A DNA stretch of 64,000 bases from Patescibacteria group bacterium (lineage in GTDB: Bacteria > Patescibacteriota > Minisyncoccia > Minisyncoccales > Staskawiczbacteraceae), in NCBI GenBank assembly GCA_038065715.1, contig JBBTQL010000011.1:2509-66508 (forward strand). The letters run 5' to 3'. The first letter of the stretch is position 1; each line of letters begins with the position of its first letter. The translations under genes and the position numbers were made by a program. The notes under the pieces were generated by a model. It did not search any database and was not told where the DNA came from. It saw only the letters and a list, made by a program, of their open reading frames with translations. Below are positions 12,249-33,859 of the stretch, piece by piece.

Positions 12249-12277
12249 TTGACATTATTAAACATAAATGATAATAT
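12249..12277 (+). promoter_or_regulatory. candidate sigma70-type promoter for the plus-strand Nudix-like gene
   Basis: TTGACA (12249-12254), a 17-nt spacer, then TAATAT (12272-12277), about 90 nt upstream of the ATG at 12368. The region is AT-rich, so a chance match is possible. Confidence 0.3.
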
Positions 12278-12367
12278 AAAAAATCTTGAACATTGACAAA
12301 ATAGTTGTTATTCGCAAGCGTTTGCGAGCAGCTGTTATTGGATTTGTTCGTTTTTGGAGAAAGTGCC

Positions 12368-13096: not shown

Positions 13097-13124
13097 CAAC
13101 AAGCGCATTGTTGCAGAATCCATA

Positions 13125-13158
13125 GCCTGCCATAAACTCCATATTGGCGGGCTTTTTT
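13125..13158 (+). terminator. rho-independent terminator of the plus-strand gene
   Basis: GCCTGCC (13125-13131) pairs with GGCGGGC (13146-13152), with one G-U pair and a 14-nt loop, and is followed by TTTTTT (13153-13158). A second perfect 7-bp hairpin, GCAACAA-gcgca-TTGTTGC, lies at 13096-13114. Confidence 0.55.
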
Positions 13159-13160
13159 AT

Positions 13161-14117: not shown

Positions 14118-14124
14118 AATAATT

Positions 14125-14493
14125 TTAGTCGCCTTTAATTATGCGTTTTGAATCTTCTTCAAAATGCGTGGTTGAAAATTCAAAAAGATTTGAATCTTCT
14201 AAGGCTGTCATTTGATGCCTTAAACCTGTTGGTATTTCAAGGCAGTCGCCTGGCAAAAATGTATAAACATTTGCCTTTGAAATATCGTCTTCCCAGCCTG
14301 CCTTTATTTCTAGTTTGCCTGAAAAAAGATAAAAAGTTTCATGTTTTTTTTCATGGTAATGAAAACTGCACTTTTTTCCTTTTTCAAAAAATAATAATTT
14401 GCCGCAATATTCCCTGTTGCTTATCCAGTCTTCAAACCCCCAGCCTTTTAAATGTTTTTCTGGCTTATACGGCTTTGGTATTTCTTTATCCAT
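14125..14493 (-). CDS. cupin-domain protein, type II phosphomannose-isomerase-like
   Basis: 122 aa. The pattern WGFEDW..., CSFHYHEKKHETFYLFSGK, PGDCLEIPTGLRHQ and a C-terminal EEDSKRI resembles the PMI/ManC-type cupin. Confidence 0.7.
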   Translation of the reverse strand: MDKEIPKPYKPEKHLKGWGFEDWISNREYCGKLLFFEKGKKCSFHYHEKKHETFYLFSGKLEIKAGWEDDISKANVYTFLPGDCLEIPTGLRHQMTALEDSNLFEFSTTHFEEDSKRIIKGD

Positions 14494-15535
14494 GTTTTAA
14501 AATTTCGTTAATTTTATTAAAAACTATATCTGGGGTTATTTTTATTAAACAGCTATGTTTTCTGCTAAAATCATACTTTGGCGTGAAAACATCATGATAT
14601 TGATAACTGCACTTTTCTGAAATTATATGCGCATTTTTGCCAAAAGGGCCTGTCCTTTCTGCAATAGTAGGCCCAAAAATAACAATTAAATCGGTATTTG
14701 TTGTAGCAGCAATATGGCAAAGCCCGGTATCTGAAGAAATAAATATTCTGCATTTATCAATTAACGAGGCAACTTCTGAAAGAGAAAACCCTATTACCGA
14801 TTCAGCTGACCCATTTAGCTCGTTTTGCATTTTAAAACAAATATCTTTTTCAAAAGCAGAACCGAAAAGAAGAATGAACGCATCAGGATAACTGCCTAAA
14901 ATTTTTTTGCCCAGTTCTTTGAAATTTTCATTTGGCCATAATTTAAACTGCTGCTTTGTGCCAGACCCTATTGAAAAGCCTATTAAAGTTTTATTTTCTA
15001 AATTACTTTTTTTTATAAATTCATCTGCAAATTTTTTGTCATTATCTGCAATCTCAAAAAATAAATCTGGCGCAAGACTGTCTGTTTTAATTCCTAAAGA
15101 TTTTAATATGTTTAAATTTGCCTCTGTTTTATGCTGATTTCCGTTTAATTTTACTTGGTGATTATAAAAATTTAATTTAAATTTTCTATATTCCCCAGCT
15201 CTTTCTTTTCCGCCTATTAATAAAGCTAAAACACTCCCATTAAGCTGGCCCACGCCATTTGCCACAAAAACCAAGTCGTATTTTTCTTTTCTAAGATTTA
15301 AAATTAATCTTATTTTATCTAAAAAATTATTTTTCTTAAAATTAAAAAAGAAAACTTTATTTATAATTTTAGACTCCTGAAAAATTCCTGTTTTGCCAGT
15401 AGCGCAGCTGACAAGCATATCTATTAAACTTTCAGAAAAATTATTTTTTAAAACTTTTAGAGCAGGCGAAAACATTATTAAGTCTCCAATTCCCCCTGGA
15501 TTTATTATTAAAATTTTTTTAAAATCATAAGCCAT
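14486..15535 (-). CDS. glycosyltransferase family 9 (heptosyltransferase-like)
   Basis: 349 aa. It has ILIINPGGIGDLIMFSPALKVLK at the N-terminus and SSDTGLCHIAA near the C-terminus, the typical RfaF/WaaC-type pattern. Confidence 0.8.
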   Translation of the reverse strand: MAYDFKKILIINPGGIGDLIMFSPALKVLKNNFSESLIDMLVSCATGKTGIFQESKIINKVFFFNFKKNNFLDKIRLILNLRKEKYDLVFVANGVGQLNGSVLALLIGGKERAGEYRKFKLNFYNHQVKLNGNQHKTEANLNILKSLGIKTDSLAPDLFFEIADNDKKFADEFIKKSNLENKTLIGFSIGSGTKQQFKLWPNENFKELGKKILGSYPDAFILLFGSAFEKDICFKMQNELNGSAESVIGFSLSEVASLIDKCRIFISSDTGLCHIAATTNTDLIVIFGPTIAERTGPFGKNAHIISEKCSYQYHDVFTPKYDFSRKHSCLIKITPDIVFNKINEILKHG

Positions 15536-20506: not shown

Positions 20507-21964
20507 CTACGCGCTTTTTAAGGCGCGGTTAATTAATTCTCTGAAAAAAATTATTTCTTTTTTACCGATAGTCCTGAATAAAAATATTAGGCTGCCGTAC
20601 ATTATAACACCAAAAATAATCGAAAAAGAAACATTAAATATGCCCTTTGGATTAAATTGCCATATAGGTAAAATCATTAAAGCAGATGCTATAAAACTTT
20701 TTGCCATAAAGTTCCAATCAATTTTAAATTTAAATTCTTTAAAAGCGAAATGCCACGTAAGAATAAGAACGCAAAAATAAGATAAAAAAGTAATTACAGC
20801 TGCAGCCACAATTCCAAATTTAGGAATTAAAATTATATTTAAAACAAAATTTACTAAAGCGCCCGCTGCCCAAATCATTGCGGCAAGTTTTGTTTTTTTC
20901 ACAAGAACCAAAATATGGGAAATAAAACAATATATTCCATAAACAATCATACTGGCTCCTATAAAAGGAATTACAAAATATGCATTGTCGGCAATTTCTT
21001 TAGTAGAAAGTATTTCAAGCAATTGATGGGATAAAATAGATATTCCAAATACAGCTGGAATCATTACTAATAAAAAATATTTTAATGAATAATTAAGATA
21101 TTTTTTAACTTCGTCTAGATTATTATCGTCAAAAAATTTAGGCAAAACAACTGATAATATTGAATTAATTGGAATAATAAAAAACACTAAAAGCATTCCA
21201 ATAGAATAAGCCGGAGCATAATATCCGACAAAAACGATTCCCAAAATAAATCCGATAGCATACCTGTCAAAAGAGGAAATCACCCAATAAGTAAAACTAT
21301 TAGTCATTATCGGCAAACCAAAACGCAGATAATCTTTTATTAAAGAAAAATCTGGAACTTTTATGCCGATTTTTTTAACAATATAAGCAAATAGGATTAA
21401 AAATATCGCTGCTTTTATAAATAAAAGAGAGAGAAACGCGCCATATAATCCAAAACCCAGTGCAACTGCGCAGATTACCGCCCCAGTCTCCCCAAACATT
21501 TTTAAATTAGAAAACCAAAAATATTTCTCTATTTCTCGCCTGGCTTGCAATACAATTAAGAGAACTGCGCTTAAAGATTCAAAAATAATAAGCAGAGAAA
21601 CAAGTTTTATAAAAACAGAATCGAAATGAAATAACACTGCAACTTGCCCAGAAAATATTACCAACAATAGGGCCATCGCCAGAGTTGTAGCAGAAACAAA
21701 AACTAATGTAGAATACACTCCTTCCTGGATTTTTTTTATATCTTTTTCACCCGCTAAAAATCTAAGCAAAGCGTCAGATAAGCCAAAATAAGCAAAAGGA
21801 ATTAACAAGCTCATGGTAGCTTTAAGTTGAACCCAAATGCCATAATCCTCGGCTCCTAAAATTTTTGTGATAAGAGGCAAAAAAATCAAACTCTGTATAA
21901 CCCCGACCCCGTGGAGCAATCCAATAAGAAGAATATGTTTTACGAATTTAAAATATGAATACAT
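20507..21964 (-). CDS. Wzx-like oligosaccharide flippase (MOP superfamily)
   Basis: 485 aa. The protein is hydrophobic throughout, with about 12-14 helices by eye, and has the typical length and context of a polysaccharide-locus flippase. Confidence 0.75.
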   Translation of the reverse strand: MYSYFKFVKHILLIGLLHGVGVIQSLIFLPLITKILGAEDYGIWVQLKATMSLLIPFAYFGLSDALLRFLAGEKDIKKIQEGVYSTLVFVSATTLAMALLLVIFSGQVAVLFHFDSVFIKLVSLLIIFESLSAVLLIVLQARREIEKYFWFSNLKMFGETGAVICAVALGFGLYGAFLSLLFIKAAIFLILFAYIVKKIGIKVPDFSLIKDYLRFGLPIMTNSFTYWVISSFDRYAIGFILGIVFVGYYAPAYSIGMLLVFFIIPINSILSVVLPKFFDDNNLDEVKKYLNYSLKYFLLVMIPAVFGISILSHQLLEILSTKEIADNAYFVIPFIGASMIVYGIYCFISHILVLVKKTKLAAMIWAAGALVNFVLNIILIPKFGIVAAAVITFLSYFCVLILTWHFAFKEFKFKIDWNFMAKSFIASALMILPIWQFNPKGIFNVSFSIIFGVIMYGSLIFLFRTIGKKEIIFFRELINRALKSA

Positions 21965-23079
21965 TACCTTATTAATGCGCCGTTAGATGCCCAATAAAAA
22001 ACCTTGCTTGTAAGCTCCCATTTTCTTTTCCAGTTATTGCCGTATCTTATTATTAATAGACCTTTATACGCAGTTCTTAAAATTACTGATGGGATCAAAA
22101 AAAGAATTGAAAAAACAAAAGAAAACAGCAGCATATCCATAAATGTTGAATTTTGGAAGAATAATTTTAAACAGCCAAAATAAGAAAAATAGTTGAAGGA
22201 TTTAAAAATTTTTAACACTATCATATCTGCCACAAAACACCACTTAAGCTCTTTGTCCCTTTGAATAAATAATGAAGCAAAATTACTATTCATATATTTG
22301 CTGGATAACAAAAAATTATTTAATTTCTTTTGCAACTGATAATGCAATATAAATTTATTTTCAACAAAATACTTATATTGGGGCAGTTCTTGTTTTACTA
22401 TAGTTTTATTAAGCGCAATTCCATCAATATCGGGATATTTTAAAAACATTAAAGAGGTTAAAATCATATGCGCGTGTTTTGTTTCAATTCCTTTTTCCAA
22501 ATCTTTGTCTTCTGCTATTATTTTTTTTGCAAGGCAAGAATTAAAAATTAATACTGATATAAAGCCGATGTTCGGAAAATTCAACCCAATAATGTCTCTC
22601 TTGTCTATTTCAAATGCTTCCGGCTTATTTTTATTGACGCTGTTCCTAAAAATTATTTTTTCTCCGGTCAGTTTATCTGTAAGGTATGATTCTATGCCAA
22701 GTATAATTAATCCTGTTTTTTCTTTCCCTTTTTTTTTAATAAAATTGACAACTTCGTTTAAACCGCCGTTTGCCATTAAATCATCGTCTCCAAAAAGCCA
22801 GACAAAATCGCCCTGGGACATTTCTATTAGTAAAAGTATGTTTTTATCAGCGCCTATATTTTCTTTGTTTTCATTATATTTTATTAAGTCTGGATATTTT
22901 TCTATAAAAACCCTTACAATCTCCCGCGTGTTATCTGATGAAGCATTGTTAGAGACACATATTTCAACTTCTCCCGCCAGCGCTTTAGCCTGAGGCATTA
23001 TGTTGTCTAAAAGTTTATTTAAACAAGAAGCCCTATTCCATGTCGGGATAGCAATGCTTAGTAAAATATCATTTTCCAT
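21964..23079 (-). CDS. glycosyltransferase family 2 with C-terminal membrane segment
   Basis: 371 aa. It has LSIAIPTWNRASCL, VSNNASSDNT and a DxD-type motif LFGDDD, plus a hydrophobic C-terminus. Confidence 0.75.
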   Translation of the reverse strand: MENDILLSIAIPTWNRASCLNKLLDNIMPQAKALAGEVEICVSNNASSDNTREIVRVFIEKYPDLIKYNENKENIGADKNILLLIEMSQGDFVWLFGDDDLMANGGLNEVVNFIKKKGKEKTGLIILGIESYLTDKLTGEKIIFRNSVNKNKPEAFEIDKRDIIGLNFPNIGFISVLIFNSCLAKKIIAEDKDLEKGIETKHAHMILTSLMFLKYPDIDGIALNKTIVKQELPQYKYFVENKFILHYQLQKKLNNFLLSSKYMNSNFASLFIQRDKELKWCFVADMIVLKIFKSFNYFSYFGCLKLFFQNSTFMDMLLFSFVFSILFLIPSVILRTAYKGLLIIRYGNNWKRKWELTSKVFYWASNGALIR

Positions 23080-24391
23080 AATTTTTCAAAAATTTATCAA
23101 AGGTTAAAATTATATAACTCATTTTCTCTTTAGTTATGCCTGCGTAGACGCCGATCCAAAAAAGATTATTCATAACAAAATCCGTGTTTTCCAAAGAACC
23201 GGAAACTCTGAATTTAATATTCTGATACGCTGGCTGTTTTAATAAATTTCCTCCAAAAAGCATCCTGGTTGCTATTTTATTTTTTTCTAAATATTCTACA
23301 ATTTCATTCCGACTAAATGGAGCCGTTTCTTTAATTAAAATAGGAAAGCCAAACCAAGAAGGTTCAGAATTTTTTTCCGTTTCTGGCAAAATAAAATATT
23401 TTTCGTAATTCTTAAAAAACTTATAAAGGAAAACAAAGTTCTTTTTTCTAGCCTCAATAAATTGAGGCAATTTTTTCAACTGAGCCAATCCAACAGCCGC
23501 CTGCATGTCCGTGATTTTTAAATTATAGCCAATATGAGAATAAATATATTTATGATCGTAGTCTTGCGACAGTTCTCCAAATTTGAAAGAAAATCTATTT
23601 TTACAGGTATTGTCAAAACCTGGCTCGCAAAAACAATCCCTGCCCCAATCGCGGAAAGAAACAATAATTTTTGTTAATAAAGGGTTATCAGCGCACACTG
23701 CTCCTCCTTCACCCATAGTAATGTGGTGAGCTGGATAAAAACTAAAAGTGCTTATATCTCCGAATGTGCCGGTATGTTTGTTGTTATACTTAGACCCCAG
23801 CGCATCGCAAGAATCTTCTAAAAGCCAAAGATTATATTTTTTTGCTATTTTTAAAATTTTATCAATATTAGCCGGGTTTCCCAATGTATGGGCGACAAAA
23901 ATTGCCTTTGTTTTTTGGGAAATTGATTTTTCAATTTTTTTTACATCAATATTATAGCTTCCCAACTCAATATCAACAAAAACCGGCGTTAAATTATTTT
24001 GCAAAATCGGATTTAATGTAGTGGGAAAACCGCAGGCAGTTGTAATAACTTCGTCGCCTGGTTTTAATTGTTTTTTACCAAGTTTTGGCGAAGTCAAAGC
24101 AGATATAGCCAGAAGATTGGCAGAAGAGCCGGAGTTAGTTAAAAGGCAATATTTTACGCCCAAAAATTCGGCGAATTCTTTTTCAAATTGTTTGGCATAT
24201 CTTCCGGCAGTTAGCCAAAAATCAAAAGAGGCGTCAACTAAATTTATCATTTCTTTTTCATCATAAACTCTGCCGGCATAATTTACCGGGGTCTCCCCCG
24301 GAATGAATTTTTTTTCCCCCGACTTTCTGACTTTGTAAAATTCCTTAACCTTATTTAAAATTTCTTTTTTAATTTGTTTCTCTGTTTTCAT
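23069..24391 (-). CDS. rfbH: CDP-6-deoxy-L-threo-D-glycero-4-hexulose 3-dehydrase (E1; RfbH/DdhC/AscC type)
   Basis: 440 aa. It is colinear with Salmonella RfbH as I recall it. The active-site region is SFYPAHHITMGEGGAV, with His where the aminotransferases have Lys. The Fe-S Cys motif is RDWGRDCFCEPGFDNTCKNRF. Confidence 0.85.
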   Translation of the reverse strand: MKTEKQIKKEILNKVKEFYKVRKSGEKKFIPGETPVNYAGRVYDEKEMINLVDASFDFWLTAGRYAKQFEKEFAEFLGVKYCLLTNSGSSANLLAISALTSPKLGKKQLKPGDEVITTACGFPTTLNPILQNNLTPVFVDIELGSYNIDVKKIEKSISQKTKAIFVAHTLGNPANIDKILKIAKKYNLWLLEDSCDALGSKYNNKHTGTFGDISTFSFYPAHHITMGEGGAVCADNPLLTKIIVSFRDWGRDCFCEPGFDNTCKNRFSFKFGELSQDYDHKYIYSHIGYNLKITDMQAAVGLAQLKKLPQFIEARKKNFVFLYKFFKNYEKYFILPETEKNSEPSWFGFPILIKETAPFSRNEIVEYLEKNKIATRMLFGGNLLKQPAYQNIKFRVSGSLENTDFVMNNLFWIGVYAGITKEKMSYIILTFDKFLKNYGK

Positions 24392-25034
24392 TTTTAATAT
24401 ATTGTTGCAGTTCTAGCGGAGTATTAAAAACCATGTCAGCTCCAGCCTTAATTAGATCATCTTTTGTTCTATACCCCCAAGTTACGCCAATACTGTAAAT
24501 AGAATTATTTTTGCCGGCAATAATATCATTTTCTGTATCGCCTATTATGGCTGTTTCTTCTTTTTTTAGTTTATACTTTTTAATAACATCTTTTACATAT
24601 TCGGCTTTTTCAGATTTTTTGTCTGTACCGTCTGTTCCACGAACAAAGATAAAATATTTTTCTAAATTATGTAATTTTATTATTTCTTTCAAAAATAATT
24701 CTATTCTATTGCTCACTATAAAAATTTGGTAGCCGTGATTTTTTAAAAATGCCAACAATTGCTCAATCCCAGAATAGACAGTATTAAGTTTGATCCCTTT
24801 TTCTGCGTAATATTTTATAAATAGACCAGACCCCTTGCTAATAGTTTCCTGATTATTTGTGCTCAACATAGTGGCTAAAAATTCTGCCAACGGCAGTCCA
24901 ATCAATTTCGTTATTTGATCTTCTGAAACTTCTTTTTTAAAATCTTTAGCAACAAGTTTAAAAGATGTGACAATCCCAGGTTTTGAATCGACCAATGTTC
25001 CGTCAAAATCAAAAATAATGTTTTTAAATTTCAT
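24369..25034 (-). CDS. HAD-superfamily hydrolase (phosphatase)
   Basis: 221 aa. It has IIFDFDGTLVDS, VSN and IGDTENDIIAG. Confidence 0.75.
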   Translation of the reverse strand: MKFKNIIFDFDGTLVDSKPGIVTSFKLVAKDFKKEVSEDQITKLIGLPLAEFLATMLSTNNQETISKGSGLFIKYYAEKGIKLNTVYSGIEQLLAFLKNHGYQIFIVSNRIELFLKEIIKLHNLEKYFIFVRGTDGTDKKSEKAEYVKDVIKKYKLKKEETAIIGDTENDIIAGKNNSIYSIGVTWGYRTKDDLIKAGADMVFNTPLELQQYIKNENRETN

Positions 25035-26728
25035 ATTTTATTTTTTTCTTCAAACAACCCTGCTTCCCATTTGGGGAGTTTTTTTTGATTAGGGTCAATA
25101 AAAACTTCGCAAAAAATAGGACCGTTAAAATTTAAAATATCTTTTATTTTATGCAGGTCTTTTTCACTTTTTATTGATTCGTATTTTAATCCCCAGGCAG
25201 GAGCTAATTTGTTCCAGTTAGGCAGCCCCACTCCAGAGCTTTCATCTGATGCAAAAACCTTTCCGAAATAATTTAGATGCGTGTTCCTGATTGAATAATA
25301 GCCTCCATTATTAAATAAAAATATTTTTATTGGAAACTTGTTGTAAATCACTGTTTGCAATTCTTGCATATTCATCATAATTGATCCATCTCCTTCAAAA
25401 CATATTACCTGTTTTTTATTGCTTGCAACGCAAGCTCCCATTGCCATGGGAAGGCCCTTGCCCATTTCACCAAAAGCAGTATTTGTAATTAACCTTTGGC
25501 CTTTCTTGAGCTTTAACGCTTGATGCGGAGTTTCTGCAGCCATGCCGTTTGTGGTAATAACTGGATAATCACATTTTCCACTTAAACTTTCTAAAAACTT
25601 ATAAACATCAATGTATTTATTATTTTTTTCAACGTTACTGCTCACGTGAGTACTCACGTTACCCCTCACGTTACCCCTCACGTTACCTCTTGCATCCCAT
25701 CTTTTTAATTTTATATTTTCTTTTAACAATCCCTTCAAAAAATCTTTAGAGTCAGCTACAACCGGAATATCAATTTTTAATGTTCTTTTATAAAGCTCTG
25801 CTTTATCTATATCCACCATTATTTTTACAGCGTTTTTTGCAAATTTTTTATATTCAAAAGAAGTATTTCTAATCTGCATTCTTGTACCTATAATAAGAAG
25901 CAAGTCACAATTATCAACTGCATAATTGGCTGTTTCAACCCCAGTCATTCCCTGTTCTCCTAAATAATATTGATAATCATCGTTTACTAAATCTGTTCCA
26001 CTCATAGCTGAAACAACATTAATTTTTGTTTTTTCAACAAATTCCCAAAGCTCTTTAACTGCTCCAGCCAATCTTATCCCGTTTCCAACAATCATTAAGG
26101 GCCTTTCAGCTTTGTTAAGCGCCGCTTTAATTTTTTTAAATGGAATAACGTACTTTGTTTTTTTCGGAGTTTTAAAGTTTTTAAGTTTTTTTTCATTGAT
26201 TTCTGAGCGCTGGACGTCTAAAGGAATCTCAATAAAAACTGGACCCGGTTTTCCGGATTTAGCCAAATAATGAGCTTTTTCCAAATGATATTTTATTTCG
26301 TTAGGATTTTCCACGCATACAGCATACTTTGTTATTGGTTTTACAACATCAAGCAAATTTATTTCCTGAGGCTCCCCAAGTCTCCTTAATCCGTTTTTTA
26401 TGTCTTGTCTTGTAAGCTTTATTTCCTTTCTCACCTGCCCCGCAATAACCATTATGGGAATTCCATCAACCCAGGCAGAGCCAATGCCCGTAACCGTATT
26501 TGTTCCACCAGGCCCCGATGTAACAGATACCACGCCAATTTTATCATTATTTATTCTTGAATAACCTTCTGCGGCCAAAGCGCAAGCTTGTTCGTGGTGA
26601 CAGCAAATAGCGTTCAATTTTGATCTTCCAATAGAGTCCACTGTATGCATGCAACCGCCTCCTGAAACCAAAAAAACGCTGTCAGTAATTCCTTCTAAAT
26701 ATTTAACTACATAGTCGCTTAATTTCAT
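25031..26728 (-). CDS. thiamine-diphosphate-dependent enzyme, acetolactate-synthase-like (YerE-like candidate)
   Basis: 565 aa with the three-domain ALS architecture. It has SGPGGTNTVTGIGSAWVDGIP in the Pyr domain and the TPP-binding motif GDGSIMMNMQELQT...NNGGY. A repeat-encoded insertion sits in the linker (see the repeat feature). Confidence 0.8.
   Translation of the reverse strand: MKLSDYVVKYLEGITDSVFLVSGGGCMHTVDSIGRSKLNAICCHHEQACALAAEGYSRINNDKIGVVSVTSGPGGTNTVTGIGSAWVDGIPIMVIAGQVRKEIKLTRQDIKNGLRRLGEPQEINLLDVVKPITKYAVCVENPNEIKYHLEKAHYLAKSGKPGPVFIEIPLDVQRSEINEKKLKNFKTPKKTKYVIPFKKIKAALNKAERPLMIVGNGIRLAGAVKELWEFVEKTKINVVSAMSGTDLVNDDYQYYLGEQGMTGVETANYAVDNCDLLLIIGTRMQIRNTSFEYKKFAKNAVKIMVDIDKAELYKRTLKIDIPVVADSKDFLKGLLKENIKLKRWDARGNVRGNVRGNVSTHVSSNVEKNNKYIDVYKFLESLSGKCDYPVITTNGMAAETPHQALKLKKGQRLITNTAFGEMGKGLPMAMGACVASNKKQVICFEGDGSIMMNMQELQTVIYNKFPIKIFLFNNGGYYSIRNTHLNYFGKVFASDESSGVGLPNWNKLAPAWGLKYESIKSEKDLHKIKDILNFNGPIFCEVFIDPNQKKLPKWEAGLFEEKNKI
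25629..25688. repeat. in-frame 12-bp tandem repeat, 5 units (3 near-identical)
   Basis: The units are tcaacgttactg / ctcacgtgagta / ctcacgttaccc / ctcacgttaccc / ctcacgttacct. On the minus strand they encode RGNVRGNVRGNVSTHVSSNV inside the TPP enzyme. Confidence 0.85.
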
Positions 26729-27669
26729 TTTATAAATTTTTCAATTATTTTTTTATGTTTTGTTTTATGAAAGAATAAATACATTGTTTCTTTAGTGCTT
26801 TCCTTAACCTGCCCAAATTTTCTAATCTTATTTTTGCTGATAACATAACATTCGTAATCAAGACCGTGCAACAAACCAATTATATCGTTTGGATGATAAT
26901 TAAATTTTTTAGACCATTTTCTCAGCATTTCAGAAAAAATTATTGGCTTATATTTTTTAATTGTTTCAATTCCTCCTTCAAAAACAAGTTTCTCTGATCC
27001 CTCAACGTCGCATTTTATAAAATCTAATTTTTTAAGCCGTAACCTTGGAACAAAGTCATCCATTCTCCTCACCTGGCACTCCTCTCTTATAGTACAGCCT
27101 GCTTCCCTCAAATTTGCCATTGAAGATGCTGTAGCTACCTCTATATCAAAATAAAATTTGACTTTCTTATTCTGATTTGAAAAACCAAAACAATATGCCT
27201 TGGCGGCAGTATAATTATTTAATTTTAAATTTTTTACCATATATTCATAAGATGACTTTATGGGTTCAAAAGAATAAACAGAAGTTCCTTTTTTTTCATA
27301 AAGAATTAAAAGGGTATACCACCCTATGTTGGCTCCAATATCAAAAACAACATCTCCTGGTTTTATAATTTTTAAAATCATATTATTTTCATTTTCTTCG
27401 CTGGCTGAAATTTGGGAAAGATTAAGATATGTTAATGGGATAGAATAAATATCTCTATTGTCACAGCAAACCATTATACTTTTATTTCCCTTGCGAACAG
27501 TGAATATCACGCCTTCATCAGTGATTTCTATTTTTTTGACCGGCGAATTTTTAATTAATTTAGGGTACTCAAATAAATGTTTGTGGGTTTCAAACATTTG
27601 TTTCATATACTTATCTTTATCGCCTCCTTTCTTGAGATAATTTTTTTTGTTTTGCAATAAATTAGCCAT
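26725..27669 (-). CDS. FkbM-family methyltransferase
   Basis: 314 aa. It has VVFDIGANIGWYT followed by SFEP, the typical FkbM-family pattern. Confidence 0.75.
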   Translation of the reverse strand: MANLLQNKKNYLKKGGDKDKYMKQMFETHKHLFEYPKLIKNSPVKKIEITDEGVIFTVRKGNKSIMVCCDNRDIYSIPLTYLNLSQISASEENENNMILKIIKPGDVVFDIGANIGWYTLLILYEKKGTSVYSFEPIKSSYEYMVKNLKLNNYTAAKAYCFGFSNQNKKVKFYFDIEVATASSMANLREAGCTIREECQVRRMDDFVPRLRLKKLDFIKCDVEGSEKLVFEGGIETIKKYKPIIFSEMLRKWSKKFNYHPNDIIGLLHGLDYECYVISKNKIRKFGQVKESTKETMYLFFHKTKHKKIIEKFIK

Positions 27670-28895
27670 TATATTCTTAAAAGATACTGATTTGCTCCAT
27701 ACTTAATGCATGGTTTACATAAATCATTATTTTTTTTCTTATTTTTTATATCTTCAAGAGAATCAAGCAAAAAATCTTTAGATACCACCGATTTTGGGTA
27801 GTTATAACAGGCGCAGCATAATGAAACAGATCTGTCCCAATTAATATTTAGCTGATTCGATAAATAACGGCAAGGAAGATTGCGGAATTGCTTGAACATT
27901 TCTAAACCTTCGTCAACGCTTACCGGCAAGAGTTTCATAAATTCTTTTGTCTTTTCATCTGTCTTTCCTTGGCAATGGTCAATAATTCTTTCAACGGGCG
28001 TGAAATTGGCGCGGCAGGTAGATAATATAAAACATAGCTCTTTGCAAAGCTCTTTCATCTTTTTTAAATCTTCACCCGTATTATTTTTATATAAATGGTA
28101 ATTCACTTCAACAGGAAAAGAACTGCCTAATTTTTCCATAAAATATTTCAGCCTGTATAAATTTGATTTTACCAAATTTATATCTCCGGCGGTGTGGGTG
28201 GTGTTATAAACTTCAGGATAATATCCAGAAACCGAAACTTTAAAAATATCAGGGGATGCCTCAATAGTTTTATAAACTTGGTCAGTGTTGGCAATTGAAA
28301 AATTGGTTGAAACAGCAACTGCAATGCCTTTTTTGTGGGCATAATTTATAATCAAATCTATTTCTGGATGAAGCAAGGGCTCCCCCCAATTATACAAGCA
28401 AATATGGCTTACTAGGTCTGATTCTTTGGTAACCTTATCTAGTATTTTTTTAAAATCTGAAAAAGGCATAATTCCCTTATGTCTCTTAATTGTTTCAATG
28501 CTGTTGGCGCAGGAGGGACACTTTAAATTGCAAGACCCCACAATGTCAATGGTTATAAAATTTTCACAAAAATCTTTATAATTAATAAAATCCGAGGCAG
28601 ACAATCCTGCCTTTTTCAATATGTCTGTGATTTCATCTTCCTTTATTGAAACAGCAACCACCAAAAGAAGATTTTTGTGTTTAGCTTTTAAACTCGAAAG
28701 ATTTTTGGGAGAAATAATATCAAGGCCTAAAATTTGTTTGCCGTAAAGCGAGGAATCCGAGTCAATAAAAGTAACCAAATTAACATCATGCTTTTTTGCA
28801 AAACGGCAAAAACCAATGCCTGTCATTCTAGCCCCAAAAACAGCCACAGGGCGCTTACCTAAAATTTTTAAAAGTTTTTTTGCATTTTTTTCCAT
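27669..28895 (-). CDS. radical SAM enzyme with N-terminal Rossmann-like (sugar C-methyltransferase C-terminal-domain-like) module and Cys-rich C-terminus
   Basis: 408 aa. The CX3CX2C motif is at IVGSCNLKCPSC. The N-terminal segment VAVFGARMTG...FIDSDSSLYGKQILGLDIISP is similar to the C-terminal modules of 32693..33859 and 52539..54512. The C-terminus carries the cysteines CCACYNYP and CKPC. Confidence 0.75.
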   Translation of the reverse strand: MEKNAKKLLKILGKRPVAVFGARMTGIGFCRFAKKHDVNLVTFIDSDSSLYGKQILGLDIISPKNLSSLKAKHKNLLLVVAVSIKEDEITDILKKAGLSASDFINYKDFCENFITIDIVGSCNLKCPSCANSIETIKRHKGIMPFSDFKKILDKVTKESDLVSHICLYNWGEPLLHPEIDLIINYAHKKGIAVAVSTNFSIANTDQVYKTIEASPDIFKVSVSGYYPEVYNTTHTAGDINLVKSNLYRLKYFMEKLGSSFPVEVNYHLYKNNTGEDLKKMKELCKELCFILSTCRANFTPVERIIDHCQGKTDEKTKEFMKLLPVSVDEGLEMFKQFRNLPCRYLSNQLNINWDRSVSLCCACYNYPKSVVSKDFLLDSLEDIKNKKKNNDLCKPCIKYGANQYLLRI

Positions 28896-28913: not shown

Positions 28914-29939
28914 TTATACATAATATTTTTTAAGCCTTTCAGCGTCATTATTCAAAACATCTTCGGGAAACAGCCTGTATTTAATCAATTCGCATTTACC
29001 GCAAATTTTAGAGGCGCCCTTGATTCCGCCAAGCATTTTGTGGCGAAATGTTTGAAACTCGCTGTTGTTCCATATTTCTTTTACTGATTGTTTATTGCAG
29101 TCGCCCAATATGGCAGGATATTCAAAGGAATAACATGGAACAACTTTTCCATCTGGATTAATTTGCATATGAAAAAAGGGCTGAGGGCAAATTTTAACTT
29201 CAGAGACGGGCAAGCCAAACTGGGTAAAACCCATTTTTTTGCCCTTTAAAATATTTTCATAATCCACTCCAGAATGTATAGGGACAGTGTGTTCAACCGC
29301 AATAGTGTCAGAAATATTGCCAAAAATTTCATAAAATCTTTTTTTATCATCTTCTCCGTCAAGCGCGCAATCTATTATTTTAATATACATTTTAGCCAAA
29401 CCTTTATTAACAAAAAAATAACGCAAATTATTTACAAAGTTTTCAAAATCTAAATTCGCCTTGCTTATTTTTTGGTATTTTTCTTTGCTTGTTCCCTGTA
29501 AAGAAACAACCAATCTAGAAAGGCCCGCAGCAATCAAGGCATCTGCCATTTTTGGAATAAGTAGCGAACCATTAGTTAGAATTTCTATTGTTTTAGCAAC
29601 GCCCTTTTGGGAGGCATATTTTACCATATCAGCTATTTGGGGGTGCAAAAGAGGCTCGCCAATTCCAACAAAGCGCAGAACCTTAATTTTTTCAGGAAAA
29701 TCAGCCATATCATTTATGCATTTTTTATACAAATCAAAATCCATAACAATCTTATCTGAAATAAAGCCCCTTTTATCTTTTTCAATCCTAAAAATTCCGC
29801 AGTAACTGCATTTAAAATTGCAGTTGTAAATTGGAAACATTTGTATCACAAAAGGAGTGCTTAAAGGAAGCGCCTCTGCAAGCCTAGTCCTTTTTCCCCC
29901 GGGCGCTTGCCCGGAAATATCTTTTGCTTTTTTTGCCAT
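28914..29939 (-). CDS. radical SAM enzyme, SPASM/twitch-type C-terminus
   Basis: 341 aa. It has IYNCNFKCSYC (CX3CX2C). The C-terminal cysteines are CPQPF...PCYSF...CGKCE. Confidence 0.75.
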   Translation of the reverse strand: MAKKAKDISGQAPGGKRTRLAEALPLSTPFVIQMFPIYNCNFKCSYCGIFRIEKDKRGFISDKIVMDFDLYKKCINDMADFPEKIKVLRFVGIGEPLLHPQIADMVKYASQKGVAKTIEILTNGSLLIPKMADALIAAGLSRLVVSLQGTSKEKYQKISKANLDFENFVNNLRYFFVNKGLAKMYIKIIDCALDGEDDKKRFYEIFGNISDTIAVEHTVPIHSGVDYENILKGKKMGFTQFGLPVSEVKICPQPFFHMQINPDGKVVPCYSFEYPAILGDCNKQSVKEIWNNSEFQTFRHKMLGGIKGASKICGKCELIKYRLFPEDVLNNDAERLKKYYV

Positions 29940-29946
29940 AAAATTT

Positions 29947-31587
29947 TTAAACTAACGCGGGTAAATTAAATTGTTTAGCATAATTTCTCCAAATTTTAGA
30001 CTCTTCTATTATTTTTTTGTATTTATCTTTATAAACCGAATATTTCTCACTCAAACCCAATAGCTTGCAGCATTTTGCTGAAAAATAATAAGCAAAGGCA
30101 TGATCATTTTTTATGCGCATTGCGTTTTCAAAACCCTCTAATGCCTTAGCATAGTTTCCTAACCTAAAATCGCTGTTTTGCACAAAATTAATCTCAAGAT
30201 TCAAAGAATAAGCTTTTTCCTGTATATATTCTGCAGTAAAATCTGGAGTTTCTATTACTGCATTTTTAAAGTCGGAGTCTGTGTAGTCGCCCGTCAAATA
30301 ATTATTTTTTATGCACAGATCAAATAATTCGCTACCCACAAGAGGAGTTGCAATATAAATTCTTATCCATGCAATATCCAAGTTCCTTAAAAATAGCCTC
30401 GTGTCTTCAATGTCTTTTTTTGTTTCTCCAGGCAAGCCGATCAAAATATTGGCGTCTGTATAAATTCCAAGCGCCCGACAGTCAGCAACAACCTGTTTTA
30501 TAATTGAAAGAGTGAGGGGTTTGTGCATAACATCTTTTAAGACTCTGTCTGATCCCGATTCTATTGCTAAAGTAATTTCATTAACCCCAGCTGACTTAAT
30601 TGCAGAAAGCATTTCTTTATCAAGGGCATAAAGGGCTAACCCTGTAAGAAAAAAGATGTTTAACTTTAATTCTTTTGCAAGATCAATAATTTTTAAAGCC
30701 CTTTTTCTGTCTAACATAATATTATCATCCAAAAAGGCAATAGTTTGGGCGCCATACTGCTCTTTTAACCGCATAAAATCTTCTTTCAACCGCTCTAAAC
30801 TATGATAGCGCATTTTTCTTCCATGAATGGAATGTGAAGCGCAAAAACAGCATTTATGCGGGCATCCCCTTGAAGTGGAATAAGGGAAATAATTCTTTTT
30901 ATTATCAAAAGAAGTGAATGTGTCTATACTTGGACTTAATTTAGATTGGCCGGTTTCTAAAAGATCATAGTCAGGGAATGGTATTTCGTCAAGATTTTCA
31001 ATAAAATCATATTGAAATGGTCCGGTTTTTTCTTTTGTTATCCATGACGGATTGCTTTTCAAAAATTCTTTCTTGTCAGATGTTTTTACAAGACCAAGTA
31101 TGGGTTTTTCGCCTTCGCCATAGCATAAAGCGTCAAAAGCAGAACTGTCTTTAAATATTTGTTTATACATATTACTGGCAGCTCCGCCTCCAGCTATTAT
31201 TATCGCATTCGGGAATATTTTTCTTGAAATGTCAGCAACATCAAGCATGTTTTTATAAGATGGGGCGAACAAGGCTGATATTCCTATTATGTCTGGATTA
31301 AAATTAACCCACTCTTTCTCTGAGAGAATTTCCAAAAATAATTCAGAAAAAGAGTTGTATTTAAAATCATCTATCTTGTTCAAAATCACATTAAAGTCGA
31401 TGAGCTTTGTTTGGACTTCAGCGTTCTTTTTTAGGTAAGCGCTAATAGAAAGCAAACCCATGGGCATGTCTGTTACAACATTCCCGTAGTTACCCGATTT
31501 TTTTACCACTACCCGCTCGTTAAAGCCTGGATTCACAAAACTGTCAAAATTTGGATAGGGCGGAACTATGAATAAAATTTTATCCAT
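29947..31587 (-). CDS. B12-binding-domain radical SAM enzyme (class B, methyltransferase-like) with C-terminal TPR-like region
   Basis: 546 aa. The N-terminal region is of the B12-binding type (ILFIVPP...IIGISALF), followed by SRGCPHKCCFC. It is a paralogue of 38866..40524. Confidence 0.8.
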   Translation of the reverse strand: MDKILFIVPPYPNFDSFVNPGFNERVVVKKSGNYGNVVTDMPMGLLSISAYLKKNAEVQTKLIDFNVILNKIDDFKYNSFSELFLEILSEKEWVNFNPDIIGISALFAPSYKNMLDVADISRKIFPNAIIIAGGGAASNMYKQIFKDSSAFDALCYGEGEKPILGLVKTSDKKEFLKSNPSWITKEKTGPFQYDFIENLDEIPFPDYDLLETGQSKLSPSIDTFTSFDNKKNYFPYSTSRGCPHKCCFCASHSIHGRKMRYHSLERLKEDFMRLKEQYGAQTIAFLDDNIMLDRKRALKIIDLAKELKLNIFFLTGLALYALDKEMLSAIKSAGVNEITLAIESGSDRVLKDVMHKPLTLSIIKQVVADCRALGIYTDANILIGLPGETKKDIEDTRLFLRNLDIAWIRIYIATPLVGSELFDLCIKNNYLTGDYTDSDFKNAVIETPDFTAEYIQEKAYSLNLEINFVQNSDFRLGNYAKALEGFENAMRIKNDHAFAYYFSAKCCKLLGLSEKYSVYKDKYKKIIEESKIWRNYAKQFNLPALV

Positions 31588-32680
31588 TTTGTATTAATTT
31601 TGGACTTTTATGAAAAGGTATTTTAGTTTTGTCTTCTTCAGTAAACACATCTTTCCAAAGAACAGGAACCGGCTGCCCGTAAACTTTTTTGGCTATATAT
31701 TTGTTGATAAAATTCCTGTCTTCGGCAATAAGGCATGTGTCAACATGTTCGCCAAACCACTTAATATCCAAGCCTCGTTGAATTATATCCTTTAAAGATT
31801 CATCAAAAATATTACCAATAGATATTTGCATATATTGGCAAGGCAAAACATCTCCCTGTTGGGTTATGGTTATCATTGTTTTTACTGCAATACAACCTAA
31901 ATTAAGACCGTATGCTGGAGTAAGATGCGTAAAAACATTATATTTTTTTTCAAGCTCCTCCATATACTTCATATCGTCTCTATTCACCAAAACATCAAAA
32001 TTTCCCTCCCATGCTCCCACTGGTTTTGCATAACTTACAAACACTCCTACTCCTTTTTTATTAAAGTACTCAAGAAACTTAATAAACTCATCTGAATGAA
32101 GCCTTTGTTTTGTAACTACTGAATTTATAAAAATATCTAATCCTGCATTTAAAGAAGCATCAATGGCTCTCATAGATCTTTCGTGAGAACCTTTTTGATT
32201 TCTGAACGCATCGTGTTCTTCTGCGTTTAAGCTATCCAAACTTAGCTGAATTCTATCAACGCCAATTGACTTTAAGTGTTTTGCCATTTTATCGTTCAAA
32301 AACCAGCCATTTGTATCGCAATTTATATAAAATTTTTGAGGGTCAATAGCGGCCACTAATTCATTCAAATCTGGAAAAACCAGTGGTTCTCCGCCAGTAA
32401 TTACAAAACGCGCAAGCCCCAGGTCGTCAGCCTGTTTCGAAAGGTCTTTTATAACAGCGGGATTTAACTGTCGTCCATCTTTTTTACCTTGAAGCCGCCT
32501 TATAGAACAGTGTTGGCAACGGAAATTACAAATGTAATTATACTGGATGTGCATTATGGCAATGCTCTCACCCTTTCTGATTTTTTCGTCAAACTTCATC
32601 ACCTTTTCATAGACAAGCGGTTTCTCCTTTTGAAGTTTACCTCTTTTATTGTTTTCTTCTGGTTTTAAATTTGTTGTCAT
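31580..32680 (-). CDS. radical SAM enzyme
   Basis: 366 aa. It has YICNFRCQHC (CX3CX2C), ITGGEPL and scattered C-terminal cysteines (twitch-like). Confidence 0.75.
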   Translation of the reverse strand: MTTNLKPEENNKRGKLQKEKPLVYEKVMKFDEKIRKGESIAIMHIQYNYICNFRCQHCSIRRLQGKKDGRQLNPAVIKDLSKQADDLGLARFVITGGEPLVFPDLNELVAAIDPQKFYINCDTNGWFLNDKMAKHLKSIGVDRIQLSLDSLNAEEHDAFRNQKGSHERSMRAIDASLNAGLDIFINSVVTKQRLHSDEFIKFLEYFNKKGVGVFVSYAKPVGAWEGNFDVLVNRDDMKYMEELEKKYNVFTHLTPAYGLNLGCIAVKTMITITQQGDVLPCQYMQISIGNIFDESLKDIIQRGLDIKWFGEHVDTCLIAEDRNFINKYIAKKVYGQPVPVLWKDVFTEEDKTKIPFHKSPKLIQNG

Positions 32681-32692: not shown

Positions 32693-33859
32693 TTATTTCA
32701 TAACAATAATAATATTTTCTGCGCCCATGTTTTTAATTTCTTTGGCAATATCATCGCTGTACAAGGCAGAGCAGACAACCACAGGCCCCTTGTGCATCTT
32801 CAATTTTTCGGACGAATATATTGGAATGTTTTTCATTTTCATGCCTTGTTTTTTGGGATCTTTGTCAATAAAAAATTCGATATTACATTTACTAAGAGAA
32901 CTGTTGTTCAAAAGCCGTAAAGCATGGGAACCCGCTCCCCAAACGACAATCTTTTCCTTAGAGTTTGCAATCCTGTCTATTTCCGGCCATTTGCTTTTTT
33001 CTTCAGATTCTTTAATGTGGGCCAAGACAGAATCCCTTACTTTTAAATTTTTAACTATATTTTTTATATTTTCTTTTTTATTTGTCTTTTTGTATATAGC
33101 ATAAACTATAGGATACAATTTGTTTGAATCCATTTGGTTGATTACCTTTTTTTCATATTGCAGCAAGTCAAAACCTTTTTGAAGAAACAAATTATTCAAA
33201 GAATTTTCGTCAAAATGATTTATATGCTCTGTATCAAAAAAATAATAAGGAACTATAAAAAATTCAGAATAGCGGGAAGCGTCCGGAACTTCTATATATA
33301 AGACCCCACCGTCATTCAGATTGTTTGACATAATATCTGCCGCTTTTTCTAAATCGCGAATATGCTCTAAAACATGAGAAAGCACAATACAGTCAAATTT
33401 TTTATCAGGAATAACTGAATTGATTGAAAAAAGCTCTCCTTCCACCGTATCAATTTCATTATTTCTTGCGTTTTGTACGCACACTTTTGCAGGATCTAAC
33501 CCCGTTAAATTCTTATAGCCTATTTTTTTTAACTCAACCAATAATTCTCCGTTAGCGCACCCAATATCCAATATGGAGGCCTCTTTATCGGGCAAAAATT
33601 TTGACAAGGGCTTCATCTTTTCCGTTGTCCACACAGGAGTTCCTCCGGATTCATATTTTGAAAATTCTTGATAATACCTACTATAATCCTGCTGGCTCGC
33701 CTGAGTATCGGCAAAAACAAAACCGCACCTATGGCAGCAGACAATATCATAATCTTTTGGCAGTTCATACATATCTAAATCAGCAAAAGATTGATGGTGC
33801 AATATTTCGCCAGAATCGCTGTTGCATATAGGGCATTTACGTATAAGTTTTTTCTCCAT
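32693..33859 (-). CDS. NDP-hexose C-methyltransferase-like protein (TcaB9/TylC3 architecture)
   Basis: 388 aa. It has an N-terminal zinc ribbon (CPICNS...CHRCGF), the SAM motif ILDIGCANGELL and a C-terminal Rossmann-like module, IVVWGAGSHAL...FFIDKDPKKQG. Confidence 0.7.
   Translation of the reverse strand: MEKKLIRKCPICNSDSGEILHHQSFADLDMYELPKDYDIVCCHRCGFVFADTQASQQDYSRYYQEFSKYESGGTPVWTTEKMKPLSKFLPDKEASILDIGCANGELLVELKKIGYKNLTGLDPAKVCVQNARNNEIDTVEGELFSINSVIPDKKFDCIVLSHVLEHIRDLEKAADIMSNNLNDGGVLYIEVPDASRYSEFFIVPYYFFDTEHINHFDENSLNNLFLQKGFDLLQYEKKVINQMDSNKLYPIVYAIYKKTNKKENIKNIVKNLKVRDSVLAHIKESEEKSKWPEIDRIANSKEKIVVWGAGSHALRLLNNSSLSKCNIEFFIDKDPKKQGMKMKNIPIYSSEKLKMHKGPVVVCSALYSDDIAKEIKNMGAENIIIVMK

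Follow-up and report, generated by a model that had tools for sequence, protein, structure and literature searches.

Carbon-branched 3,6-dideoxy sugars are rare, immunodominant surface determinants of a few Proteobacteria, mycobacteria and spirochaetes. In the yersiniose A system of Yersinia pseudotuberculosis (DdhA-D/AscA-D, YerE, YerF), YerE catalyzes a thiamine diphosphate (ThDP)-dependent acyl addition to a C-4 ketone (PMC9306805, PMC12247030), for which it uses pyruvate without the need for an aldolase (PMC9306805). In the published scheme for other systems, a pyruvate aldolase makes 4-hydroxy-2-oxo acids, which are attached to the sugar by ErwE, MMAR_2332 or MyGE, and ErwE prefers such donors (PMC9306805). 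JanthE and PpYerE are also called YerE-like, and JanthE takes pyruvate among other donors (PMC12247030). In this study, we analyzed a stretch of 64,000 nucleotides (the window) from the metagenome-assembled genome (MAG) of a Patescibacteria bacterium (GCA_038065715.1, contig JBBTQL010000011.1), in which a first-pass annotation had placed an E1-type sugar 3-dehydrase next to a ThDP enzyme and proposed a yersiniose-like branched 3,6-dideoxyhexose. To our knowledge, the surface glycans of Patescibacteria, DPANN archaea and Bathyarchaeia, which have tiny genomes and depend on attachment to hosts, are almost uncharted.

The window is a single array of closely packed, often overlapping minus-strand genes with a GC content of about 31%. 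We estimate a probability of roughly 0.6 that it encodes the central part of a route to a 3,6-dideoxyhexose that remains CDP-activated and bears an acyl branch at C-4, with the donor and tailoring steps proposed below included; for the branched-sugar core alone our confidence is higher. The functional assignments all draw on homology, synteny and gene fusions, and the proposal centers on two genes:

23069..24391, minus strand: E1/RfbH, a pyridoxamine 5'-phosphate (PMP)- and [2Fe-2S]-dependent CDP-4-keto-6-deoxyglucose 3-dehydrase of 440 amino acids
25031..26728, minus strand: predicted YerE-like ThDP-dependent carboligase of 565 amino acids that would place an acyl branch onto a keto-sugar

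The E1 protein has the DegT/AAT fold (PF01041, 333 bits) and scored 718 bits with NF011936, the NCBIfam equivalog of RfbH, against a cut-off of 423. It shares 55% identity with Salmonella RfbH and aligned end to end (residues 4-435, 547 bits) with the solved Y. pseudotuberculosis E1, 3bcx. The first histidine of SFYPAHHITMGEGG (His222) fell on His220 of 3bcx, a column that shows lysine in the H220K mutant structure 3bb8. The first-pass annotation had allowed that a proper alignment might bring back an aminotransferase lysine; because His222 aligns with His220 and the mutant carries the lysine at that place, this objection is excluded. The iron-sulfur motif reads Cys195-X57-Cys253-X-Cys255-X7-Cys263, with CFCEPGFDNTC present, and all four cysteines aligned with those of the Yersinia enzyme, which confirms the E1-specific features first noted in this gene. 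Among 25 E1 proteins aligned from YerE-like loci, the catalytic histidine was kept in every one and the four cluster cysteines in 24, the last (L051) having an unreadable residue at one cysteine column. In all its sequence-level features the protein agrees with the RfbH/AscC family, the sole exception being the linked E3 reductase, and on the evidence of the histidine and cysteines we rejected an aminotransferase or a ColD-like enzyme.

The ThDP enzyme was recognized by Pfam as a full three-domain protein (TPP_enzyme_N, TPP_enzyme_M and TPP_enzyme_C), in line with its first description, and it carries the GDG-X24-NN motif (GDGSIMMN...FNNGG) and the glutamate of the HEQ motif (HHEQA). The best acetolactate synthase (ALS) model, TIGR00118, gave 347 bits against a cut-off of 538, and the protein stayed under the curated cut-off of every ALS equivalog model listed. 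Models for sulfopyruvate or phosphonopyruvate decarboxylases were absent from the 25 best of its 54 NCBIfam matches. Among solved proteins it matched JanthE (8rph) with 327 bits and PpYerE (5ahk) with 234, E. coli acetohydroxyacid synthase (AHAS) I with 204 and plant AHAS with about 190, and it shares with JanthE and PpYerE an insertion in the GQV...QE loop that AHAS lacks. In a neighbor-joining tree the window enzyme, its homologues from Candidate Phyla Radiation (CPR) bacteria and DPANN archaea, JanthE, PpYerE and all E1-linked enzymes formed one clade, which was split from AHAS/IlvB at a bootstrap of 100/100; within it the window enzyme stood in a different sub-clade from PpYerE. The tree was made by neighbor joining, not maximum likelihood, with PpYerE and JanthE as the YerE-like references and without YpYerE, ErwE, MMAR_2332 and MyGE. 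No ALS small subunit, ilvC or ilvD was found by Pfam in the array, where the scan covered all minus-strand open reading frames of at least 120 amino acids and one overlapping plus-strand frame, 12305..13096. The comparison with genuine ALS by match scores and phylogeny, which the first-pass annotation had named as its check, thus grouped the enzyme with JanthE and PpYerE and apart from the IlvB type. On the NCBIfam matches listed, the solved matches and the bootstrap, we rejected ALS and sulfopyruvate or phosphonopyruvate decarboxylase as its identity, and sequence, phylogeny and context mark it as a probable YerE-like carboligase and not an ALS. The gene also contains a perfect 12-nt tandem repeat of 2.9 copies (25653..25687), whose product is an (RGNV)x3 stretch in the linker that leads to the C-terminal domain. 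Since most of the closest homologues (74-81% identical) are 12-17 amino acids shorter, the repeat seems to have expanded recently and in frame.

A profile scan of GTDB species genomes with the ThDP alignment returned at least 80 loci, those listed all having at most 44% identity. We analyzed 82 loci, including four places from exact protein look-ups. In 44 of them the ThDP gene was at least 34% identical to the query, and genes within 10 kb of it were counted. Among these 44 loci as listed, 25 had an E1 homologue (48-70% identity) in that range and 18 had RfbF-like genes; RfbG-like matches occurred in 31, a count partly inflated by cross-matching short-chain dehydrogenases/reductases (SDRs). 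Near true ilvB loci (Streptococcus and others), no E1 was present among the loci listed. The linkage to E1 joins the identity of E1 itself and the YerE-like clade in supporting the branched 3,6-dideoxy sugar that had been inferred from the window.

Close homologues of the ThDP enzyme (55-81% identity) came from Patescibacteria, Pacearchaeota, Nanoarchaeia, Woesearchaeota and Bathyarchaeia. Their neighborhoods repeat genes for RfbF-like and RfbG-like proteins, an SDR, a NeuB-cupin fusion, a small Nudix-like protein, a C-methyltransferase, a radical S-adenosylmethionine (SAM)/SPASM protein of the 31580..32680 type, the ThDP enzyme, a haloacid dehalogenase (HAD) protein, E1 and a family 2 glycosyltransferase (GT2). 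Besides those for E1 and the ThDP enzyme, the genes of this region of the window are:

41447..42229, minus strand: RfbF-like glucose-1-phosphate cytidylyltransferase, 40% identical to Salmonella RfbF over the full length
40521..41468, minus strand: RfbG-like CDP-hexose 4,6-dehydratase (an SDR), 30% identical to Salmonella RfbG
38866..40524, minus strand: B12-binding radical SAM protein with a TPR tail (Pfam B12-binding, Radical_SAM and TPR)
37803..38879, minus strand: SDR of the epimerase/dehydratase family (Pfam Epimerase)
36938..37816, minus strand: SDR, candidate branch or ring ketoreductase with a YerF-like role (Pfam Epimerase)
35366..36877, minus strand: NeuB-family phosphoenolpyruvate (PEP)-dependent synthase fused to a metal cupin (Pfam NeuB and Cupin_2)
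34863..35351, minus strand: Nudix-like protein related to GDP-mannose mannosyl hydrolase (NF011963, 44 bits, below cut-off)
33865..34854, minus strand: radical SAM/SPASM protein, accessory tailoring (Pfam; homologues in L006 at 65%, L027, L036 and L040)
32693..33859, minus strand: TylC3-type sugar C-methyltransferase (Pfam Methyltransf_23 and Methyltransf_14, the C-methyltransferase C-terminal domain)
31580..32680, minus strand: core radical SAM/SPASM protein of the cassette, linked in function to the ThDP enzyme by the fusion of its homologue in P0048
29947..31587, minus strand: B12-binding radical SAM protein, accessory tailoring (Pfam; below all NCBIfam cut-offs)
28914..29939, minus strand: radical SAM/SPASM protein, accessory tailoring (Pfam; 73% homologue in the Bathyarchaeia locus L006)
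27669..28895, minus strand: radical SAM protein, accessory tailoring (Pfam; 53% homologue in the Omnitrophota locus L027)
26725..27669, minus strand: FkbM-family methyltransferase (Pfam Methyltransf_21, TIGR01444)
24369..25034, minus strand: HAD-IA phosphatase of 221 amino acids coupled to the ThDP enzyme (Pfam HAD_2)
21964..23079, minus strand: GT2 glycosyltransferase, candidate transferase for the finished CDP-sugar (Pfam Glycos_transf_2)

The cassette is carried by Patescibacteria, Nanoarchaeia, Bathyarchaeia, a Tara marine contig and another metagenome contig, Methylophilus, Dechloromonas and Omnitrophota, with more divergent forms in Methylophilus, Dechloromonas, Rhizobiales, Holophagales, Omnitrophota, Anaerolineae and Vulcanimicrobiota MAGs. 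The order E1 - NeuB-cupin - ThDP was found in Methylophilus, Dechloromonas and Rhizobiales MAGs (L041, L051 and L033), and the NeuB-cupin gene immediately adjoins the ThDP gene in five loci of different phyla (L014, L023, L033, L041 and L051). At least 18 of the 120 top ThDP homologues lie on contigs of exactly the same size as that of a top-120 NeuB-cupin homologue. Three gene fusions tie cassette members to the ThDP step: P0048 has a full-length homologue of the 31580..32680 protein (61% identity) at the N-terminus of the ThDP enzyme, P0069 is a ThDP enzyme with a C-terminal HAD, and the Pacearchaeota locus L009 joins a cupin to the ThDP enzyme. In the window the HAD gene sits between the E1 and ThDP genes and overlaps both, the ThDP gene also overlaps the FkbM gene, and the GT2 gene overlaps the 3' end of the E1 gene. 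A HAD gene adjoins the ThDP gene in L004, L006, L008, L009, L027, L089 and L090, GT2 is part of the same cassettes in L004, L041, L089 and L090, and homologues of the C-methyltransferase are present in L004, L006, L027, L036, L041, L089 and L090. YerE-like ThDP genes were also seen in legionaminic/pseudaminic acid (Leg/Pse)-type clusters without E1, in a Bacteroides and a Clostridiales MAG (L053 and L060). These clusters contain NeuB, a NeuC-like epimerase and a PglD-like acetyltransferase, L060 in addition a DegT aminotransferase and L053 two ThDP paralogues. They hint that nonulosonic acid pathways, too, make use of ThDP chemistry, and the repeated pairing of NeuB with ThDP genes agrees with NeuB products as donors.

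The rfbF gene and the 4,6-dehydratase-like SDR gene that had been reported at 40521..42229 are indeed there, and both proteins score under the cut-offs of the equivalog models: 261 bits against 300 for the RfbF-like protein (TIGR02623) and 212 against 278 for the RfbG-like protein with its best model, TIGR02622. The RfbG-like frame probably starts with the ATG at 41468, not the TTG at 41528. Both other SDRs are candidates for reduction of the branch ketone. Homologues of 37803..38879 (26-36% identity) were present in 16 of the 44 YerE-like loci listed, and 36938..37816 co-occurs with the ThDP gene in seven loci at 36-41% identity (L004, L008, where it lies beside an aldolase and E1, L019, L027, L048, L053 and L060). 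The B12-binding protein 38866..40524 scored below every NCBIfam cut-off and has 44-46% homologues in the Methylophilus and Dechloromonas cassettes; it is probably a tailoring enzyme for C-methylation.

An E3 reductase gene had been reported missing from the window, with the remark that E1 needs such a partner. The absence was upheld by every approach. No Fer2 or FNR domains were present among the Pfam-scanned frames of the window, and tblastn with Salmonella RfbI gave no match in it at E <= 10. A scan for 2Fe-2S and 4Fe-4S ferredoxin motifs in any frame of the window found none, with RfbI as a positive control; an initial expression that combined ferredoxin, RxYS and GxGxxP motifs had come back empty, after which the ferredoxin motif was used by itself, with Salmonella RfbI as the check. 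The window has no space for an unannotated E3 gene, as its intergenic gaps are at most 180 nt, the first 663 nt excepted. The 10-kb flanks on either side also lacked an E3 gene, so that 83 kb of contig were covered overall, and none of the related loci analyzed had a full E3 with a ferredoxin domain at 10 kb or less from the ThDP gene. Nearly all related loci likewise lack E3, and its absence is normal for the clade, not an anomaly. Two loci, L012 (8137..8859) and L025 (7541..8140), encode an FNR-like flavoprotein of 240 amino acids that lacks the ferredoxin domain and may be a trimmed substitute for E3; in L012 its gene comes right behind that of E1. SpnQ is a precedent for an E1-type Fe-S/PMP 3-dehydrase that is served by general ferredoxin or flavodoxin reductases (PMC8987622). 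With this precedent, a housekeeping electron donor is the simplest reading. We also considered two other candidates. The GFO/IDH/MocA oxidoreductase at 42263..43258 was rejected as a substitute for E3, having no homologue in the 44 related loci listed, and the radical SAM/SPASM protein found no support as an electron donor of E1, its fusion being to the ThDP enzyme and not to E1.

NeuB enzymes condense PEP with an aldose to give a 4-hydroxy-2-oxo acid. The best solved match of the NeuB-cupin was the SpsE-like protein 3g8r with 384 bits, versus 79 bits for true NeuB/sialic acid synthase, and its cupin resembles D-lyxose/mannose isomerases and has an intact HxHxxxE metal motif. The solved matches of the HAD protein are phosphoglycolate-phosphatase-like. 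In Campylobacter concisus (L008) and an Omnitrophota MAG (L027), the ThDP and HAD genes are followed by one for an HpcH/HpaI aldolase. Pfam found no HpcH_HpaI domain in the window, and in the window and its close relatives, which have no such aldolase, the NeuB-cupin is always present. Homologues of a CMP-ulosonate synthetase (CTP_transf_3) occurred in none of the 44 related loci listed. Since no such synthetase is conserved in the cassettes, the NeuB product is more likely used by the ThDP enzyme than activated, and the NeuB-cupin would fill the role that the pyruvate aldolase has in pathways with longer branches. We put this forward tentatively and give somewhat less than even odds to a 2-keto acid donor that is made by NeuB, in place of pyruvate. 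A longer donor is suggested by the conserved NeuB-cupin and HAD, and hence the earlier term yersiniose-like should not be taken to mean a two-carbon branch: the branched-sugar core behind it is supported, the length of the branch is doubtful.

In the pathway that we propose, the RfbF-like cytidylyltransferase and the RfbG-like 4,6-dehydratase would, by homology, make a CDP-4-keto-6-deoxyhexose, from which E1 with PMP and its [2Fe-2S] cluster would take off the 3-hydroxyl group. As no E3 is encoded nearby, the electrons would come from the general ferredoxin or flavodoxin system of the cell. The ThDP enzyme, judged by its relatives, would decarboxylate a 2-keto acid and add the acyl anion to the C-4 ketone, which would create a tertiary alcohol branch. 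The donor may be a 3-deoxy-2-ulosonic (4-hydroxy-2-oxo) acid made by the NeuB-cupin from PEP and an aldose, with the HAD phosphatase, and perhaps the Nudix hydrolase, preparing or finishing it. An SDR could then reduce the branch ketone, and the C-methyltransferase, the conserved radical SAM/SPASM protein and the accessory radical SAM and FkbM enzymes could, in one order or another, tailor the sugar before the adjacent GT2 would install the finished sugar and Wzx would export it.

The best placed of the alternatives is a plain yersiniose-type pathway, in which pyruvate provides a two-carbon acetyl branch on CDP-4-keto-3,6-dideoxyglucose, an SDR reduces it, methyltransferases and radical SAM enzymes decorate the sugar, and the NeuB-cupin, HAD and Nudix proteins belong to a different sugar of the same island. 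In its favor, YerE works with pyruvate and without an aldolase (PMC9306805), and pyruvate is also among the donors of JanthE, the closest solved relative. Nonulosonic acids are a further product of the island, and their synthesis is expected to involve NeuB-type enzymes. However, the nonulosonic acid genes come with their own canonical NeuB+SAF (50199..51320), and the NeuB-cupin is of a distinct subfamily by the scores given above. It travels with the ThDP enzyme and E1 in compact clusters that have no other nonulosonic acid genes (L041, L033, L089 and L090), and the cupin-ThDP and ThDP-HAD fusions bind these partners to the ThDP step. We therefore regard a pyruvate-only pathway as unlikely.

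A linear route appears more improbable still. Here the CDP-sugar would be deoxygenated, branched and methylated, the Nudix and HAD proteins would release the free sugar in the role of NeuC or PseG, and the NeuB-cupin would condense it with PEP to an ulosonic acid that is then activated with CMP. The combination of Nudix, HAD and NeuB does mirror the hydrolase-then-synthase logic of the sialic, pseudaminic and legionaminic acid pathways. The Nudix protein, with 2i8t and 1rya as its solved matches and 43-61% homologues in L004, L006, L027, L041 and L051, is similar to GDP-mannose mannosyl hydrolase and may be a nucleotide-sugar hydrolase. The window also has two CTP_transf_3 genes, but the missing CTP_transf_3 homologues in the related loci, compact cassettes with a GT2 included, would leave the product without an activating enzyme. 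Moreover, the ThDP-HAD-HpaI aldolase arrangement of C. concisus and L027, in C. concisus without any Nudix protein, fits donor synthesis better.

Very little speaks for the possibility that the E1 homologue, lacking E3, works as a ColD-like dehydratase or an aminotransferase and that the acceptor is not a 3,6-dideoxy-4-keto sugar. The 83 kb of contig contain no E3, and SpnQ transaminates when no reductase is supplied (PMC8987622), but the histidine in 25 of 25 and the four cysteines in 24 of 25 aligned proteins argue for selection on electron transfer, ColD has no Fe-S cluster (PMC8987622), and the FNR-like flavoprotein is kept in two related loci, in one of them right after E1. That the protein is an ordinary ALS or other 2-keto acid decarboxylase merely located inside a glycan island, as its top-scoring NCBIfam matches to ALS large-subunit models and the JGI label acetolactate synthase on its homologues might suggest, can be dismissed in view of its 347 bits against 538 and its place under every listed ALS equivalog cut-off, its 100/100 separation from the ALS clade, the lack of a small subunit, ilvC and ilvD by Pfam among the array frames scanned, the close overlap of its gene with those for HAD and FkbM in the operon and the conserved linkage to E1.

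Several observations weigh against the CDP-activated, acyl-branched 3,6-dideoxyhexose that we prefer. About 45% of the YerE-like loci listed have no E1 within 10 kb, and the placement of L053 and L060 in Leg/Pse-type clusters implies that acceptors vary within the clade. The phylogenetic placement rests on PpYerE and JanthE, and both donor and acceptor of the ThDP enzyme are deduced from sequence. As the RfbF-like and RfbG-like proteins score under the CDP-specific equivalog cut-offs, the nucleotide or the hexose could differ. An E3 could be encoded elsewhere in the genome, the two CTP_transf_3 genes of the window could activate an ulosonic acid, and the roles given here to the Nudix, cupin and radical SAM proteins are tentative.

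The radical SAM protein 31580..32680 is about 70% identical across more than 10 phyla and better kept than the ThDP enzyme or the NeuB-cupin. Its homologues (P0245-P0364) are from Patescibacteria, Omnitrophota, Chloroflexota, Kiritimatiellota, Desulfobacterota, Pacearchaeota, Nanoarchaeota and Bathyarchaeia, and such identity over this breadth is unusually high for an uncharacterized enzyme. MoaA, SkfB, PqqE, BlsE and BtrN are its nearest solved proteins; NCBIfam and PDB searches gave sub-threshold, non-specific matches only and no specific family for the radical SAM proteins. The cross-phylum synteny and the P0048 fusion support the earlier suggestion that the intervening radical SAM and methyltransferase genes act on the branched sugar. 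The Tara marine cassette holds the fused radical SAM alone, and the four other radical SAM genes, the further B12-radical SAM gene and the FkbM gene of the window, which likewise follows the ThDP gene in L036, are accessory. A bolder and doubtful extension of our proposal is that two sugar-derived pieces are joined by a C-C bond: a NeuB-made ulosonic acid would be coupled to CDP-4-keto-3,6-dideoxyhexose, with E1 using a donor other than E3, and the radical SAM/SPASM protein would then rearrange or tailor the product to a double sugar of C12-C14 or more. If so, CPR bacteria, DPANN archaea and Bathyarchaeia would bear this very large double sugar at their surface.

The cassette is part of a larger glycan island. 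Pfam assigned only glycan biosynthesis domains, or none, to the frames of the array, which fall into three blocks:

0-23 kb: glycosyltransferases, heptose genes and Wzx
22-42 kb: the branched-sugar cassette
43-62 kb: a pseudaminic/legionaminic-type nonulosonic acid block

The island runs on for at least 10 kb past window position 1 (L091, 208,229-228,885 of the source contig), where further glycosyltransferases, a second flippase, Bac_transf, PIG-L and a PglF-like dehydratase are encoded, and glycan genes thus span at least 73 kb in this Patescibacteria MAG. Identical proteins are also found in Hainich groundwater assemblies and the MAG GCA_964366045.1. Rfam and tRNA scans of the window gave no RNA genes.

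The nonulosonic acid block (43255..61772) is separate from the cassette and of the Pse/Leg type, with a PseB-like dehydratase, three DegT aminotransferases, NeuB+SAF, two CTP_transf_3, two WbqC, a GNAT protein and a B12-radical SAM gene. It includes an FkbH-like HAD (54723..55799) between a 76-amino-acid acyl carrier protein (~54509..54739) and a 113-amino-acid phosphopantetheinyl transferase (~55814..56155), which suggests an acyl decoration borne by the carrier protein. Heptose-type genes at 11201..15535 (a PfkB kinase, a cytidylyltransferase-like protein fused to HAD, a cupin and a GT9 heptosyltransferase) are present although classical lipopolysaccharide is not expected in a CPR host. Between them lies 12305..13096, the sole plausible plus-strand gene of the window (263 amino acids, no Pfam match), where the local GC content is 41%, compared with about 31% elsewhere; its product has a GLREACEEYG stretch similar to a Nudix box, and the gene looks like an insertion of foreign DNA. 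At 5736..6527 there is a short UDP-glucose/GDP-mannose dehydrogenase-like gene with N-terminal and central domains only, and its counterpart is L004 15206..16066 (263-286 amino acids). It is probably not a pseudogene, because it is kept next to an SDR in both the window and the Nanoarchaeia contig. Just upstream of the island, the stretch 62195..64000 and L092 8181..11570 encodes a 604-amino-acid prenyltransferase/squalene-cyclase-like alpha/alpha-barrel protein, a 178-amino-acid protein, DUF4430 and DUF6580. The alpha/alpha-barrel and DUF4430 presumably resemble two domains of transcobalamin-type B12 binders, and such a binder would fit the four B12-dependent radical SAM genes of the island.

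Overall, our analysis finds the enzymatic core of sugar branching in Patescibacteria, DPANN archaea and Bathyarchaeia as well. If donors of ThDP carboligases are indeed made from PEP, this route would be useful for the biocatalytic synthesis of tertiary alcohols, and a highly conserved radical SAM protein fused to a ThDP enzyme and E1-type deoxygenation without E3 would be further new enzymology. For annotation, a gene labeled acetolactate synthase beside rfbH should be read as a probable sugar-branching enzyme.

Like yersiniose A, the window has an RfbF-like cytidylyltransferase, an RfbG-like 4,6-dehydratase, and E1 with its histidine and [2Fe-2S] site. It also has a predicted ThDP carboligase with three domains that belongs to the YerE-like clade, and an SDR available for branch reduction. 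It differs in having no E3 gene (AscD/DdhD), in the sub-clade of its ThDP enzyme, which is not that of PpYerE, in the added NeuB-cupin, HAD, Nudix, C-methyltransferase and one to six radical SAM enzymes, and in its host, which is a CPR bacterium and not a proteobacterium. The ThDP enzyme shares domain order, ThDP fold and loop insertion with JanthE from Janthinobacterium sp. HH01 and PpYerE, whereas JanthE has a CDG ThDP motif in place of the canonical GDG and lacks the extra (RGNV)x3 linker repeat. The arrangement of isomerase-like cupin, NeuB-family synthase and HAD mirrors the trio of isomerase, PEP-dependent synthase and HAD phosphatase in the KDO and KDN pathways (KdsD/KdsA/KdsC; KDN-9-P synthase and phosphatase); the cassette, in contrast, has no conserved CMP-ulosonate synthetase, and we propose that the keto acid goes to the ThDP enzyme. 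As in the spinosyn forosamine pathway, where SpnQ is an E1-type Fe-S/PMP enzyme whose gene cluster has no dedicated E3 (PMC8987622), E1 stands without a linked reductase, but SpnQ belongs to an actinomycete secondary-metabolite cluster and has a dTDP-2,6-dideoxy substrate, and the window protein passes the CDP-type RfbH equivalog.

Clusters with YerE-like enzymes are already a known kind, and an in-silico survey by Krug et al. 2024 reportedly covers more than 200 of them; in a literature search outside that survey, we found no paper on this cassette. A close parallel is found in the clusters for longer acyl branches (erwiniose ErwE/F/I/J, caryophyllose MMAR_2331-2333 and gastriose MyGE; Steitz et al. 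2022, PMC9306805), in whose convergent scheme an enzyme that forms C-C bonds makes a functionalized 2-keto acid, which is then joined to CDP-4-keto-3,6-dideoxyglucose by a YerE-like enzyme. The relatives in C. concisus (L008) and an Omnitrophota MAG (L027) come with exactly this aldolase arrangement, whereas the window has no class II pyruvate aldolase of the HpcH/HpaI or BphI type and the NeuB-cupin and HAD would stand in its place, next to radical SAM enzymes that have no counterpart in the published clusters. Relative to the accessible descriptions, three things are new: the module of NeuB-cupin, HAD, Nudix and radical SAM proteins, together with the fusions that join it to the ThDP enzyme, a systematic lack of E3, and the presence of such genes in CPR bacteria, DPANN archaea and Bathyarchaeia.

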